Positions 42,014-48,639 of a stretch of DNA of 64,000 bases are shown here, piece after piece; position 1 is the stretch's first letter, and every line of letters begins with the position of its first letter. The stretch lies in sequence record PX441839.1; one strand, written 5' to 3'. Made by a program: the position numbers and the translations under genes. The notes beneath the pieces are model-generated. The model did no database searches, was not told where the DNA came from, and was given only the letters and a program-made list of their open reading frames with translations. This DNA comes from a phage.

Positions 42014-42850
42014 TTACACTTTTCTTGCATTGCTGGGAAATTCTCGTTTCTCCGTATCACCCCATATGATCCTTACAGCAGATGCACCTGGGGCATTTGA
42101 AGATCCGTGTCCAGACCCACCTCCGAAGTTTCCTCCTCGTCTACCACTCTGGTCTTCGCCTCCAGACCCACCTCTTGCACTTGTGGGGATTTGACCACCC
42201 CTGCCCCCTGCACCATTGACACCTACTCCGTAAATACCCACTCCACCACCGCCACCTGAGTTTTCACCAGATGACCCTGAGAAGTAATATCCTACAGATC
42301 CTCCACCCCCACCACCTTCCCCGCTACCTCCAGCGGAGTAATTTGTAGAAGGGGGGTATGCATTACCTCCGTCCCCTCCCTTTCCTATATACCCTGCTGC
42401 ACCTCCAGCGCCAGCACATCTTTTCCTGTCATTGGCGGAGGAGTTACTCCCTCCAGCACCACCTTTGTTTATTACCGCACCACCCATATCAGGATACGAT
42501 CCTGTGTAAGGTTCCGGTCCAGAACCAAACCCTGCGACAACCAGCGGAGTTCCATCCCGAAAAAGTCCAACAACAGTTGTCCCATCATCGCTGCCTCTTG
42601 TGTGGACCTGTAGAGTCTCCCCAGGTAGCACAGGTATGTGGTTTCTCCATACTAGGTCTCCCCCAGCACCACCTCTACGTGGGAGAGGATCTGTTTGAGG
42701 CATCCCTCCTTGACCGACACACACTACGCTAATATCTTCCACATTGTTTGGAACAACCCACAACTTAGGTGCAGTAGTGAGGGAAGTGTACTCCACATTC
42801 CCTAGTTTAACTGGAGCTTTAGTTTTTACCGTCGCTGTCATTAATTCTAA
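42014..42850 (-). CDS. Gly-rich protein with the shared N-terminal leader
   Basis: Start at internal ATG (MLELMTATVKTKAPV) with AAGAGGAAA RBS; C-terminal 60% is poly-Gly-rich (GGAGGSNSS...GGSGEGGGGGGSVGYYFSGSSGENSGGGGGVGIYG...). Confidence 0.55.
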   Translation of the reverse strand, partial: LELMTATVKTKAPVKLGNVEYTSLTTAPKLWVVPNNVEDISVVCVGQGGMPQTDPLPRRGGAGGDLVWRNHIPVLPGETLQVHTRGSDDGTTVVGLFRDGTPLVVAGFGSGPEPYTGSYPDMGGAVINKGGAGGSNSSANDRKRCAGAGGAAGYIGKGGDGGNAYPPSTNYSAGGSGEGGGGGGSVGYYFSGSSGENSGGGGGVGIYGVGVNGAGGRGGQIPTSARGGSGGEDQSGRRGGNFGGGSGHGSSNAPGASAVRIIWGDTEKREFPSNARKV

Positions 42851-43269
42851 CATAACTTTCCTCTTTAAGATACTAATTCTAGAACGGGTCTCCATCCAAG
42901 ATCGGTATTAGCTGTACCGTTAATCTTCCCACCGAAGATATTCCCAGTAGACTAGGAGATACCTCTGCGTGGAACATGTTATTTTGGTACATTGTGAATT
43001 CAGTCGATAGTGAGTACCTGCCGTAAATTGGAGGGTTAAAGTCCGTAGTTGGCAAAGTCAGAAGTGTCATAAGTACCTCTCTAAAATTCAATGCAATTGG
43101 ATCGCTGTTTATAAAACCATAAAGTCTTCCTTCCAAATTACCACAATTTCAAGCATTATTTACCCTCTGTGTTGCATGGAAGGATCTTTATTGATCCTCG
43201 ACGTACCGCAGGATTCTTATCACTCCTTGCACACTGTTGTCGGGTACTGGTGAGTATAGCCTAGGTATC

Positions 43270-43806: not shown

Positions 43807-43824
43807 AAATCTCTCCAATATTTG

Positions 43825-43847
43825 AAAGGGGCCGAAGCCCCTTTTTT
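43825..43847. terminator. bidirectional terminator hairpin
   Basis: AAA-GGGGC-cgaa-GCCCC-TTTTTT between the DNA polymerase exon 2 and the leader cassette. Confidence 0.6.
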
Positions 43848-43928: not shown

Positions 43929-44228
43929 TCAGTGACATTGCCCCCAATTAAGTCCTGTCAGATACTCACCTGTGATATGTACAGGTGCCTTCATCATCTT
44001 AGCTGCTTGTTCAACGCAACGAACAACCATTTCACCGACAGGGCAGTAGATGATAGTGAATATTCCATTCTCATCGGGGTCGCACTTAAACTTACCTTCC
44101 TTGACACAATGACCATCCAGAACCATACGCTTCTTGAGGCAATCCTCAACAAAAGCTTTTGCTTCGACTTCATTGTCAAACTTCCATTCCTTCTTGAACT
44201 TATTTGGAACTTCAAGCTGGTATTCATC
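43929..44228 (-). CDS. DNA polymerase family A, exon 2 (C-terminal end)
   Basis: Begins at DEYQLEVP (second half of the Pol A motif C, HDE...E.P) and ends ...TGLNWGQCH, like the Pol I C-terminus; the leading Met of the track ORF is probably intron-derived. Confidence 0.6.
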   Translation of the reverse strand, partial: DEYQLEVPNKFKKEWKFDNEVEAKAFVEDCLKKRMVLDGHCVKEGKFKCDPDENGIFTIIYCPVGEMVVRCVEQAAKMMKAPVHITGEYLTGLNWGQCH

Positions 44229-44998
44229 CAAAGTTTAGCAGGTTCGTTAATCCTGCCCACACCATTACGTGTTGCCATACGGTTTCCCGTAGGATCGGAC
44301 TATATCACCACCCTTTTCAGGGTGCTCCCCATTTCGACGCCACTTGGTCGCCTACGCCTCTCGGCTAGTCTCTGAACGTTAAGACCACGTATACTTCTCG
44401 GAAATATGCTTCCACTGCCGACGCTGCTTAATGGCTCGTACTGTTGCATAGGGGAATCCCATGTCGCGTACCTCTGCCTGGCTCATTCCGCTTTCAAGAA
44501 GCTGGCAAATGGTCATCACTTCGTCTTCTGTGAGGGCACTATTAGCATTGTTGATACCTTCCGCGCTGCGACAGTTGTGGCGATAGGCGTTCTCTATGTT
44601 TTTGCCTCTCGTAACCCACTGTAGGTTGTCTTTGTGGTTATTCCTTTTATCGGGCCACTTGTGATCAACCTCTGGAAGATTGTTCGGATTGGGAACAAAA
44701 CATTCTGCCACCAAAACATGGACCGCCTTTGTCGTCGCCTTTTTGTTAAGGTAAAGACTGACAATTGCATACCCTCTTCCATTATCAACATGCTTCATAG
44801 GTTTACCTCGACGACCTATAATGGTCCCGTCCTCGTAAACTTTATATCCGAAATAGTCTTTGTACTCCACGTAGTCCTCTTCGCTGCTGATTAACATAGC
44901 TGCACTTTAGTTTATTATTAACCCAGTGTCAACCTTAGCCTTCCAGCAATTAAAGGAGTTTTCGATGTAGGTTGCCCTACAAAGCCACAATGTTACTT
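44229..44998 (-). mobile_element. group I-like intron in the DNA polymerase gene, carrying an HNH homing endonuclease ORF
   Basis: About 770 nt separate the exon 1 end (...VRRIIYYH) from exon 2 (DEYQLEVP), splitting motif C. It contains an HNH ORF and an 80-nt core conserved with the second intron. Boundaries approximate. Confidence 0.55.
44379..44897 (-). CDS. HNH homing endonuclease
   Basis: 172 aa; HVLVAECFVPNPNNLPEVDHKWPDKRNNHKDNLQWVTRGKN is an HNH-type motif; lies between the polymerase fragments. Confidence 0.75.
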   Translation of the reverse strand: MLISSEEDYVEYKDYFGYKVYEDGTIIGRRGKPMKHVDNGRGYAIVSLYLNKKATTKAVHVLVAECFVPNPNNLPEVDHKWPDKRNNHKDNLQWVTRGKNIENAYRHNCRSAEGINNANSALTEDEVMTICQLLESGMSQAEVRDMGFPYATVRAIKQRRQWKHISEKYTWS

Positions 44999-47326
44999 AT
45001 GGTAATAGATAATACGACGAACTCCCTCGTCATACCATCCCTTCTTGACCAGTTGCCAGTGAAGCAAGATTCCAACCAGGTCAAATAGTGCTGCACCACC
45101 ATTCTGCTGAAATGCGTTCAACAGGGAGTGCTTTGAACGAGTCCAAATCTTACGCCCATCCAAACCATAGATGAATCTTTTCCCTGTCGCTTCCCAGAAT
45201 TTCTCCAGCGCTTCTTTACGACCTTTTAATCCGATGTTGCTATCCCAGAATGCGTTGATTACATCCTGTGCCTTATCTACTGTGATTCCAAGCATGGATG
45301 CAATCTTGGGTGCCTGAGCGCCGTACATGATTCCATACGTGATACTCTTTCCCTCGCCACGAGAAACCTTCTTCCCCGCTGCCTTTGTGTATGCCTCTGC
45401 GTTTCGGGTGTGGGCGTCCCCCGACTCCATGATTTCAAGGTAAGCGCCACCATCGAACTCATACGCACCCCAAGCCGCAATCATACCTTCCAGGTTAGAA
45501 CCATCAATACCCACTTGGTACTTACCCTTTGGTGCTCGCCAAAGGGAACGCATCTCATAACCAAACAACACCTTCGGATCAGGCTTAGGCATGTTTGCGC
45601 AGATCGTGTGCTTACGACGCCCAGTGTTGGTAATCCCTGAGAACCTTGCTGGTAATCGACCATCAATCTTCAAGCGTGGGTGGTTAAGAAGTCCAGTATC
45701 AACCTTATCCTCTTTCAGTGGATCAAGGACAGATCGTCGGTTACGTGCAGATAACCACTGAACAATGCCTTTAGCCATCGCACCATCCACCTTTTCCAAG
45801 TTTGGGCACAATCCCTGCTGGTCTTTCAACTGAGGGCTTGTTGGCAATGCACGGGCCTTCTTACGGAAGAATTTGAACATCTTCTCCTTGTCTGCCCACT
45901 GCTTAGGGGTAATGTGCAAGTTCTTAAGGATAAGATCACGATATTCTGTCTGATCTAGTTGCTCAATATACTCCCGCACAATTGCATCAACTTCACCATC
46001 CGGACGTTGCTTTTTAAACTGGTCCTTTGTTGCATCCTTTGTACGCCAAATTGTTGGAATCCAACCCGCATCTCGGATGAGGAACTTCTTAACATCATCC
46101 TGGTTACCGATACGCATCGGAATCATTATATCTGGCATGGTCTTATTCTTCAAGTCCGCCAAAGCCCGTGCCATATCCTCTGGAGGTAGTGGCTCCAGTG
46201 TGGATTGTTTTTCGTTCTGACTACGAATGAACTGAGGCATTTGATCCTCATCTTCCACCCCGTGGTCATTACAGTATTTAATAGCCGCAGCCGTAAGTGA
46301 ACCATCTGCCTTAAATGCTTTAGCCGGAGGCCCCTTGAAATCAAGGGCTTCCCAATTAATATTGTATCCTAACTTCTCCAGCCATTTCCAACCTGTGCCG
46401 GACAATGTCCCGTCACCCTTGAAAGGTTTGGATGGGAAAGTTGGTTGTGCGGATTTAGCCATCTCTTTCTTCGGAAGCTGAGGCTCAACCTCTTCCTCAA
46501 TCTTCTTCATGAAGGCATCAACCGTATCGCGGAGTTTCAGCGCCGCCTCTATGTCAAAATCAACACCTTGGATTTCTTGCTCAATCATCAGGTAATCGGT
46601 AAGCATACCTCGACGAAGAGAGTCTTTCCAGTTGATCATTTTATATTTTGTTGGGACACGCTCATCTTTAAACATGAAGCGTTTATCATCTGGGTACGCA
46701 TCGCAGGTGATTTCCTTCATAAGGGCGTCCCACACCTTTTCGTTGATGATAACGTCCTCAATGATACGGTCACAATACTTCCACAACGGGAGTCCACGCC
46801 AATCATCAATGGCGACTTTCAGGTTGGCTACTCTCATACCCCATGCTTCCAGACCATGAGGGCCAACAGGTTTCATCTTTCCTGTGACAGGGTTTTTAAC
46901 CATTTCTGGGCAACCCTTCGGCAATGGGCGGTCAGGGTAGAGTGTACGAGACATAGACAAGGAGTCAAACAGGTTAACCTGTTTTCCATTGATCGTTCCC
47001 ATGCACTTAGGATCGGCAAACATATCGTATTGTGTACCGAACAGCTTCTTGAACAGACGTAAGTCATATCCAAACAAGTTGTGAATAACAATGCTACTAG
47101 GGACTTCTGTGAACCATCTATTAAGGTCAGAGAAGTTCATTACATGCAGATTGAATCCCTTCGCATTAACGAAGTTCAAAGCCTCTTGATAACCCTCTCG
47201 CGCTGGGTCCATGAAGAGATACCAGTTATCCTTTTTGTACTCCTTGAAGAGGATGCAGTGAGCATGTAAGTTCTCCTCGTCAAGTAAACCAGATGCTTCC
47301 GCATCACCTACCCATAAACCTTTCAT
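44999..47326 (-). CDS. DNA polymerase family A, exon 1 (3-5 exonuclease and polymerase domains through the start of motif C)
   Basis: Motif A-like DGSNLEGM (D.S..E), motif B-like KSITYGIMYGA (K...YG..YG), N-terminal exonuclease-like region; ORF ends abruptly at ...VRRIIYYH-K-stop inside motif C. Confidence 0.8.
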
Positions 47327-47371: not shown

Positions 47372-47401
47372 CATAAAAGATCAAGCCCAGCTTTCACTGG
47401 G
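47372..47401 (-). terminator. putative terminator after the 47410 gene
   Basis: Minus-strand GCCCAG-tgaaag-CTGGGC hairpin followed by a T-rich run. Confidence 0.4.
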
Positions 47402-47409
47402 CTTCTGTA

Positions 47410-48005: not shown

Positions 48006-48271
48006 TAATACTCTCCTCTCAGAAGGCCATCTTTGTCAGGGAAGGTGGCACCATCACCACCTTCAAACATTCCGTCCAGGTCTGCGATTACAAGAGCACC
48101 CTGCTCACCTGACTGAACAAACCGTAGAGATCCTGAATAAGAACCACCACCAAAAATTTGGATACCTAGGGCCTGAGCTTGTCGCCCGTAACGGGACAGA
48201 CCTTTTGCAATACGCTCAACTTCTTTTGGATCTAAACCTGCTGCTTCACACTCATCAACATTCGCGTACAT
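48005..48271 (-). CDS. hypothetical protein
   Basis: 88-aa ORF. Confidence 0.45.
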   Translation of the reverse strand: MYANVDECEAAGLDPKEVERIAKGLSRYGRQAQALGIQIFGGGSYSGSLRFVQSGEQGALVIADLDGMFEGGDGATFPDKDGLLRGEY

Positions 48272-48639
48272 TATTTCTCCAGATATTCCAAGCGAGGGTA
48301 TTTTTTACCTGCGTAGGTTTCGACATTACCACACTTGTTACAGGTATGTGGGTACTTTATCGGGCTGGACAGAAGTGCATCTCCACGAGACTCCATTTCC
48401 CCACCGCATTCGCAATACATGTGGATAAAGTAAGGTTTTGCCTCTACTCGCCGTTCACCCTTTGTCGGCTTAGGATCTGTGGCCCTCATGTTCCATTGTT
48501 CTTGGAGATAATCAAATCCGTGTTCTGTTCTTTTCTGACAGCCGCAGTTCCCACATTCGGCAACGTACCGATCAGAGTACCTTTTCTCCTCATATGTGTA
48601 TGCTTCACTCCCGCAGAACGGACAAGGTTTAAAGTTCAT
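48271..48639 (-). CDS. Lar-family-like zinc-ribbon protein (possible restriction alleviation)
   Basis: N-terminal KPCPFCGSEA...CGNCGCQ...EQWNMR matches the Lar-family pattern recalled from the E. coli Rac prophage Lar; a second Cys cluster lies C-terminally. Confidence 0.5.
   Translation of the reverse strand: MNFKPCPFCGSEAYTYEEKRYSDRYVAECGNCGCQKRTEHGFDYLQEQWNMRATDPKPTKGERRVEAKPYFIHMYCECGGEMESRGDALLSSPIKYPHTCNKCGNVETYAGKKYPRLEYLEK

Follow-up and report, generated by a model that had tools for sequence, protein, structure and literature searches.

Sequence record PX441839.1 holds 64,000 nucleotides (nt) of phage DNA, the whole of which is here called the window, with a family A DNA polymerase gene in two pieces on its minus strand. 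Features below lie on that strand unless another is named, and their coordinates are given in the direction of reading. Exon 1 (47326..44999; 776 codons) ends ...GVRRIIYYH, its last codon being CAT 45001..44999, and exon 2 (44228..43929) reads DEYQLEVP...LNWGQCH, opening with the catalytic Asp-Glu of motif C and closing with a TGA stop (43931..43929). Between them lies a 770-nt group I intron (44998..44229; AAGUAAC...CUUUG), recognized by an Rfam match and by the intron-less allele of Salmonella phage SSBI34, and within the intron is an open reading frame (ORF) for an HNH homing endonuclease (44870..44379). Taken together, the locus is very probably a mobile group I intron with an I-HmuI-like HNH gene, seated in motif C of a family A polymerase. 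It is a further copy of an element that has already been described and has experimental support.

The split polymerase gene

On the minus strand, the ORF list contains a frame running from 47326 to a stop at 44993, a frame at 44231..43929, and a frame of 172 codons at 44897..44379. The upstream border reads ...ATT ATC TAT TAC CAT | AAG TAA CAT TGT GG..., and the downstream border reads ...AAA CTT TG | GAT GAA TAC CAG.... When 47326..44999 and 44228..43929 are joined at CAT|GAT, the product is 2628 nt (875 codons), with a predicted ligated junction of ...TATTACCAT|GATGAATACC.... The closest phage record is that of SSBI34 (Vequintavirinae; 89% identity over 70% of a 25-kb stretch), which has an uninterrupted “DNA polymerase I” of 875 codons, its intron-less site reading ...ATATACTACCATGATGAATACCAGC.... 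The joined gene is colinear with it, with 0 gaps, 85.6% DNA identity, and 858 of 875 amino acids (aa) identical (98%). The CAT|GAT junction is contiguous sequence in SSBI34, and a shift of 1 base in either direction destroys the match, so that the intron is exactly 44998..44229 (770 nt). Escherichia coli phage UPEC06 likewise has no intron at the motif C site.

An in-frame UAA lies 4 to 6 nt inside the intron (CAT AAG TAA), and a polymerase translated from unspliced RNA would therefore end two codons into the intron, without the catalytic Asp-Glu. Exon 2 lacks its own start codon and ribosome-binding site; the TTG listed as a “start” at 44231 is a product of mechanical ORF listing, its G being the terminal G of the intron.

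The protein comparisons also cross the junction. Pfam DNA_pol_A passes the joined protein (37.4 bits; cut-off, 34.3), with a match that spans the junction, and fails exon 1 alone (33.3 bits), while the phrog_17 (DNA polymerase) profile gives a single match spanning residues 1-874. The best solved-structure match of the joined protein is T7 DNA polymerase (gp5; E = 3e-16), to which motif A (GIDGSNLE; GIDASGLE in T7), motif B (RGEGKSITYGIMYGA; RDNAKTFIYGFLYGA in T7), and motif C (RRIIYYH|DEYQLEV; AYMAWVH|DEIQVGC in T7) all align. Because the junction falls on H|DE of the T7 protein, the intron parts the motif C His from the catalytic Asp-Glu, a site that by this alignment is His881|Asp882 in E. 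coli Pol I numbering. In that numbering, polymerase introns have been recorded at 674 (SPO1, SP82, Bastille, and Pf-WMP3), 676 (phiL7), and 881 (PhiI and W31) (PMC3428280, the I-PfoP3I paper).

An earlier reading of the window from its letters alone (the sequence-only reading) had proposed that a family A polymerase is interrupted within motif C, with His on one side and Asp-Glu on the other, and with exons at 44999..47326 and 43929..44228 about 770 nt apart, and both the split and the coordinates hold in the T7 gp5 and SSBI34 alignments. It had also assigned exonuclease and polymerase motifs to exon 1. The polymerase motifs A and B stand; the exonuclease motifs were not confirmed, residues 1-289 giving no real sequence match to solved structures in a search aimed at that domain. 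By eye, the N-terminal part of the polymerase shows DAE and HNLFGYD motifs.

Ribozyme structure

Rfam model RF00028 (Intron_gpI) matches 45008..44276 above its gathering cut-off (54.0 bits against 50; E = 6e-11), and it is the sole Rfam match at gathering threshold within the whole window. The secondary structure was built by hand and counted on a 19-sequence alignment of introns at the same site, with the P6a insert taken out. These came from ORF-bearing phages (CR9, PBES02, A73, LTH01, A5-4, CB7, phiTE, GEC_vB_MG, and Aeromonas phage 4L372D), phages without an ORF or with an ORF remnant (KP12, SYGMH1, and navn), and metagenome and IMG/VR contigs (L012, L015, L039, L042, L046, L049, and L050). 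Standard pairs fill 96.3% of the cells, against 34-44% with partners slid by 1-3 columns, and compensatory changes occur in 36/62 pairs, against 3-15 with slid partners; the observed values were attained in 0 of 500 shuffles. The conserved structured segment suspected between the exons in the sequence-only reading is thus a set of core helices that pair and covary across the same-site introns.

The P1 hairpin (45002..44985) pairs exon bases CCAU and intron bases AA (45002..44997) with the guide UUGUGG (44990..44985) with U 44999 and G 44988 forming the U.G wobble of the 5' splice site. The U.G is invariant in the 19 sequences, and P1 pairing as a whole is invariant or varies only by wobble. 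P10, as read from the sequence, would pair CAUU (44992..44989) with exon 2 bases GAUG (44228..44225), and the guide 5'-CAUUGUGG-3' (44992..44985) can pair contiguously with the ligated exons CCAU|GAUG; P1 and P10 on one guide sequence, as they appear here, are the textbook group I arrangement.

The 5' half of the core (44980..44882) contains P2 (44980..44967, with a GNRA loop), the 5' strand of P3, P4, P5, and the 5' strand of P6, with compensatory changes in P2, P3, P4, P5, and P6. P3 pairs CUCCUU (44958..44953) with GGGGAG (44330..44325), P4 pairs UGCUGG (44948..44943) with UCAGCA (44890..44885), and the core helix P5 pairs 44940..44938 with 44895..44893. The 3' half (44378..44229), which is 88-92% identical to the introns of CR9, CB7, and phiTE, runs from the 3' strand of P6 to the terminal G (44229), the last intron base before the 3' splice site. 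Within it, P7 pairs GACUA (44370..44366) with UAGUC (44302..44298) and forms a pseudoknot with P3, followed by P7.1 (44365..44356; GCC-GAGA-GGC), P7.2 (44352..44336; paired in 87-94% of cells, with compensatory changes), P8 (44324..44309), P9 (44291..44278), P9.1 (44272..44259), and P9.2 (44256..44238). Judged from P7.1 and P7.2, the former poorly aligned in distant relatives, the intron is probably of subgroup IA type; the label IA2 is the one published for the PhiI and W31 introns (PMC3428280). An intein and a group II intron were dismissed: a stop codon appears in frame 4 nt inside the insert, the frame of the ORF bears no fixed relation to that of the exons, and Rfam identifies the element as group I.

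P6 is a 2-bp helix (44883..44882 with 44378..44377) that covaries in 20/20 introns (CG/CG, CC/GG, GA/UC, and GU/AC), and beyond it, again in 20/20, come an invariant AAG/AA internal loop and a P6a stem of 5-14 bp around the insert. Because P6 and P6a bracket the insert in every case, the ORF is looped out of P6a. The window stem has 11 consecutive pairs: its 5' strand (44878..44868; AGGACUACGUG) holds most of a Shine-Dalgarno-like GAGGA and the GUG start codon of the endonuclease, and its 3' strand (44391..44381; UACGUGGUCUU) holds the final codons of the HNH ORF and the first base of its stop codon. The stem is maintained through compensatory changes in CR9, A73, LTH01, GEC_vB_MG, and L050. 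The introns of L012, L015, navn, and SYGMH1 are naturally ORF-less (257-328 nt), the ORF-less versions of 257-276 nt having a short P6a hairpin where the ORF would be, and those of L039 and KP12 have visibly degraded ORF remnants in P6a. The HNH ORFs of the PhiI and W31 introns are likewise in P6a (PMC3428280).

A different location for the ORF is given by the Rfam alignment, in which cmscan sets the large insertion after CAAAGACUA, so that the ORF would lie between P7 and the 3' strand of P3, with CAAAGACUAU (~44856..44847) as the 5' strand of P7. This placement is almost certainly wrong. CAAAGACUAU is part of the HNH coding sequence, and CB7 and phiTE, with the same core but a different ORF, do not have it, whereas all the introns, CB7 and phiTE included, retain UUCAGAGACUAG past the stop codon; in the ORF-less introns, UUCAGAGACUAG stands directly 3' of the P6a hairpin. 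P6, P6a, and P7 of the hand-built structure pair and covary. The Rfam placement was rejected because the relatives put the true 5' strand of P7 after the stop codon.

The HNH endonuclease

The I-HmuI-like gene (44870..44379) runs from GUG 44870..44868 to UAA 44381..44379 and encodes 163 aa, although the open frame reaches upstream to AUG 44897 (172 aa). Several features point to GUG 44870 as the probable start: GAGGA (44879..44875) lies four bases ahead of it, the protein then begins MEYKDYFGY..., in register with the first residues of I-HmuI in the alignment, and the length agrees with the PBES02 and LTH01 annotations and with 163-aa homologues. Of the 29 homologues returned by a database search, 17 have a length of exactly 163 aa, among them the closest, at 92% identity. 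The sequence-only reading had placed an HNH ORF at 44379..44897; the gene is a real I-HmuI-like HNH ORF, and its start is probably GUG 44870 instead, given the GAGGA and the 163-aa homologues.

In 163-aa numbering, His70, Asn82, and Asn91 are invariant among the 29 homologues and Asp69 is present in at least 90%, and the motif aligns to VDHK...NL.W....N.EN of I-HmuI. The protein matches PHROG 59 (“HNH endonuclease”; E = 2e-39), and its sole sequence match among solved proteins is I-HmuI of phage SPO1 (PDB 1U3E; E = 5e-9). Pfam HNH_3 (PF13392) is present in most of the homologues by precomputed annotation. Among PDB folds, an AlphaFold (AF2) model (predicted local distance difference test [pLDDT] score, 85.6) significantly matches 1U3E alone (E = 5e-8; 180 columns; template modeling [TM] scores, 0.53/0.50). 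In the model, the architecture is I-HmuI-like over the full length, with an N-terminal beta DNA-binding part, the HNH motif, and a C-terminal helical DNA-binding part.

Putative expression signals

AUG 44897 is part of a conserved J5/4 segment, AUGYUAAUCAGCAG, that introns lacking an ORF also keep. The AUG shares the frame of the HNH ORF in the window, CR9, PBES02, A73, LTH01, A5-4, and L042; in GEC_vB_MG and L046 it opens a short upstream frame that terminates over the HNH start codon (AUGA and UUGA, respectively). These frames hint at leaderless or coupled translation and could be coincidence; AUG 44897 may itself be used as an endonuclease start.

A consensus scan found a sigma-70-like promoter element in the extended P5 hairpin (44932..44904), with TTGACA at 44932..44927, a 17-nt spacer, and TAAAGT at 44909..44904. 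Eleven ORF-bearing relatives have equivalent promoter-like hexamers around divergent spacers; ORF-less L012, L015, and navn, as well as KP12, have none. Transcripts from the element would begin at about the J5/4 AUG (44897). On a full-length pre-mRNA, the P6a stem would hold both the ribosome-binding site and the GUG start of the endonuclease. An operator in the style of I-TevI, in which the homing-site sequence would recur close to the promoter of the intron, was not found (best local alignment, 13; shuffle mean, 14.4).

Splicing and endonuclease expression could conceivably be separated at the level of the transcript, a tentative suggestion that we consider rather unlikely to be correct as a whole. 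RNA from the P5 promoter would be dead as a ribozyme and would begin at or beside AUG 44897, possibly as a leaderless mRNA, while full-length RNA would have its Shine-Dalgarno sequence and GUG locked in the 11-bp P6a stem. If true, any one RNA would either splice or yield endonuclease, never both.

Related introns

A blastn search with the core only returned 123 phage records, mostly Vequintavirinae, and further relatives were reached with a 19-mer (P3-J3/4-P4) and an 18-mer (J8/7-P7); in IMG/VR, an exact 26-mer of P7/P7.1 sequence retrieved phiTE alone. The order “DNA polymerase/HNH endonuclease/DNA polymerase” is already annotated at this locus in CR9, PBES02, A73, W70, A5-4, LTH01, CB7, and phiTE. 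In these Pectobacterium (CB7 and phiTE), Cronobacter (CR9 and PBES02), and E. coli (A73, W70, A5-4, and LTH01) phages, the insertion site is the same as in the window, ...TAYTAYCAT|GATGAATACCAG, and the ribozyme core is shared with it at 88-92% identity. The 3' core of CB7 was ~80% identical to that of the window in a first search and ~92% identical over the core query. The CB7 intron, between CB7_49 and CB7_51 at the homologous position, has been shown to splice by reverse transcription-PCR and Sanger sequencing (PMC7344957).

The same 163/172-aa HNH gene as in the window lies in P6a of CR9, PBES02, A73, and LTH01. Unlike these, CB7 (L004 3827-4513, minus strand), phiTE (L005 3772-4458, minus strand), and 4L372D (L055) have in the same loop an unrelated HNH ORF of 127-130 aa (127 aa in CB7 and phiTE), and one intron family thus hosts two different endonuclease genes. 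That ORF begins at the J5/4 AUG and reads through P4' and P6, and the three introns have a longer P5 extension with a GGAGG ribosome-binding site and a promoter-like TTGACA-16-TATGAT. CB7 and phiTE (L005 4792-5462, minus strand; Rfam, 52.1 bits) also have a second, upstream polymerase group I intron with another HNH ORF, which the window does not have. Some same-site introns lie in quite different polymerases (for example, L012, ...IQIHYH|DEAQWEV), always after the motif C His.

At the same site in rV5-like phages, the intron is ORF-less in navn (L054; 276 nt) and SYGMH1 (L053; 328 nt) and has an ORF remnant in Klebsiella phage KP12 (L052; 343 nt). In all three records, exon 1 is a “DNA polymerase” that runs into the intron and exon 2 is a “hypothetical protein”; the polymerase is thus systematically misannotated.

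The PhiI and W31 introns were reportedly described by Bonocora and Shub in 2004, with an endonuclease named I-TslI. These T7-like phages have their intron at Pol I position 881, after the motif C His, with an HNH ORF in P6a (PMC3428280), and the window intron shares both features. The phages that carry these introns are podoviruses, unrelated to the rV5-like myoviruses of the window type, and the likeness is one of site and ORF location as described. The sequence-only reading had compared the locus to the polymerase introns of SPO1-like phages. As to the kind of element, the comparison is apt, the SPO1-type intron also being of group I, carrying an HNH nicking endonuclease, and interrupting a family A polymerase gene, and in both sequence and fold the window endonuclease is most like I-HmuI. 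The site differs: SPO1-type introns, in phages of Gram-positive hosts, are at position 674 in the fingers region (PMC3428280), and the window intron is at 881 in motif C, so that its nearest described relatives are the PhiI, W31, and Vequintavirinae introns and not the SPO1 intron.

The T4 introns in td, nrdB, and nrdD (I-TevI, I-TevII, I-TevIII) resemble that of the window in having the endonuclease ORF looped from a peripheral helix. Promoters lie inside them, and the ribosome-binding site of the endonuclease is sequestered in an RNA hairpin (reviewed in PMC2988022); the promoter-like element in P5 and the P6a stem of the window would be their parallels. The T4 introns differ in their host genes and in that I-TevI and I-TevII are GIY-YIG enzymes, and the regulation proven in T4 is inferred in the window.

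Three groups of records found in these searches stand apart. Two IMG/VR contigs (IMGVR_UViG_3300029847_000004, L013 1124-3120, plus strand; IMGVR_UViG_3300000289_000023, L025 4445-6600, plus strand) each have five ORF-less RF00028 introns (53-94 bits) in ~2 kb of one strand, some neighbors only ~12-20 nt apart, which implies micro-exons; three exon-like peptides of the L025 locus had no match in a PHROG search. T7-like Klebsiella phage RCIP0039 (L057, ~1265-2625) has a core segment 75% identical over 81 nt just downstream of a “T7 RNA polymerase” coding sequence (CDS) and overlapping one “hypothetical protein” CDS, the first of two, at its end, which suggests an intron of the same family in an RNA polymerase gene. 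Some 15 unannotated “Campylobacter phage” records (host, Campylobacter jejuni; for example, MG065647, MG065659, and MG065672) match the core at 80.2%, the same as E. coli rV5-like phages, and may be mislabeled or contaminant assemblies.

Mechanism and alternatives

The boundaries, the restored colinear ORF, the covarying RNA fold, and the endonuclease fold with its catalytic residues are established here. On the mobile-intron reading, the transcribed RNA would fold so that the guide CAUUGUGG aligns the last bases of exon 1 (CCAU, with the U.G wobble) with the first bases of exon 2 (GAUG). A free guanosine would then set off two transesterifications that finish at the terminal G 44229, excising the 770 nt and restoring the 875-codon polymerase frame. 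Splicing in the window phage is expected from the homologous CB7 intron, which does splice. The P6a loop would encode the 163-aa I-HmuI-like endonuclease, perhaps expressed from the putative P5 promoter. If it acts as its relatives do, the enzyme would, in mixed infections, nick or cut, close to the insertion site, those polymerase alleles that have no intron, and repair of the cut allele would copy the intron into it (homing).

Intron-plus and intron-less alleles coexist among close relatives. Across the junction, the window exons are SSBI34-like, not CR9-like, except at 2 synonymous positions, -10 and -7 from the site, which agree with intron-bearing phages (ATCTATTACCAT; SSBI34, ATATACTACCAT). 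These two positions suggest homing with a very short co-conversion tract and are too few to serve as proof of recent homing.

Two other accounts of the locus were weighed. The gene could be permanently split by insertion of an endonuclease cassette, with no splicing and with the halves translated apart and associating as subunits. The ribonucleotide reductase gene of Aeh1, which is said to be split by mobE, is the model for such an unspliced two-subunit arrangement. Database records do list the pieces as separate CDSs, and one intron-like HNH insertion in CB7, CB7_245, was unspliced under the conditions of the study (PMC7344957). Against this, a complete and strongly covarying ribozyme core surrounds the ORF, exon 2 has no means of initiating translation by itself, and the break falls between adjacent residues of the catalytic site. 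The splicing of the homologous CB7 intron in that same study (PMC7344957) also speaks against it, as do the ORF-less introns at the same site, which a simple endonuclease cassette cannot explain. A permanent split is accordingly highly improbable. A decaying relic, with inefficient splicing or a dead endonuclease and a polymerase that is impaired or dependent on a helper, would fit the marginal Rfam score, the sub-threshold Pfam score of the HNH protein, and the ORF remnants of L039 and KP12. All core helices of the window intron are nonetheless intact, and the ORF is full length, with Asp-His...Asn...Asn kept and a 163-aa homologue at 92% identity. The interrupted gene is also the only family A polymerase seen in the examined part of the window, with no second polymerase gene annotated in the syntenic SSBI34 region. 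We regard a relic as very unlikely, if marginally less so than a permanent split.

Several points weigh against a mobile, self-splicing intron as described above. The Rfam score exceeds its threshold by only 4 bits, and the Rfam alignment misplaces the ORF insertion. P7.1, clear in close relatives, is paired in 68% of cells overall, its alignment being unreliable in distant relatives. The window HNH protein scores 22.5 bits with PF13392, below the 24.8 cut-off. The promoter and the sequestered ribosome-binding site are patterns in sequence alone. Transcript support comes from the CB7 homologue, the window phage having been read as DNA only, and endonuclease activity, target site, and homing are predicted only from relatives.

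Neighboring features

Terminator-like G+C-rich hairpins with T runs flank the polymerase gene, one at 47383..47404 (minus strand), just upstream of its start, and one at 43824..43845 (plus strand), ~85-105 nt past its stop. Two genes downstream of the polymerase, an ORF of 293 aa (42014..42895, minus strand) has extreme glycine runs (GGAGG, GGGGGG, GSGG...). An ORF of 122 aa with CxxC...CxxC pairs (48271..48639, minus strand) is in synteny with an SSBI34 gene annotated as a “restriction alleviation protein, Lar family” (L001 6078-6446).

Implications

The current understanding of group I introns is unchanged by this copy, and what it adds is only mildly new: the structure of the Vequintavirinae intron, a corrected ORF start, and the putative control of the endonuclease by a promoter and P6a. 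Its value is mainly for annotation. The polymerase in this phage group is routinely deposited as two or three CDSs, exon 2 sometimes as a “hypothetical protein,” and the exact splice junctions give the correct joined CDS. The same-site introns, which are ORF-less or carry either of two unrelated HNH genes and which extend to divergent polymerases from metagenomes, form a natural series on the gain and loss of endonuclease genes in a ribozyme, and the series is also useful for asking how endonuclease expression stays compatible with splicing.

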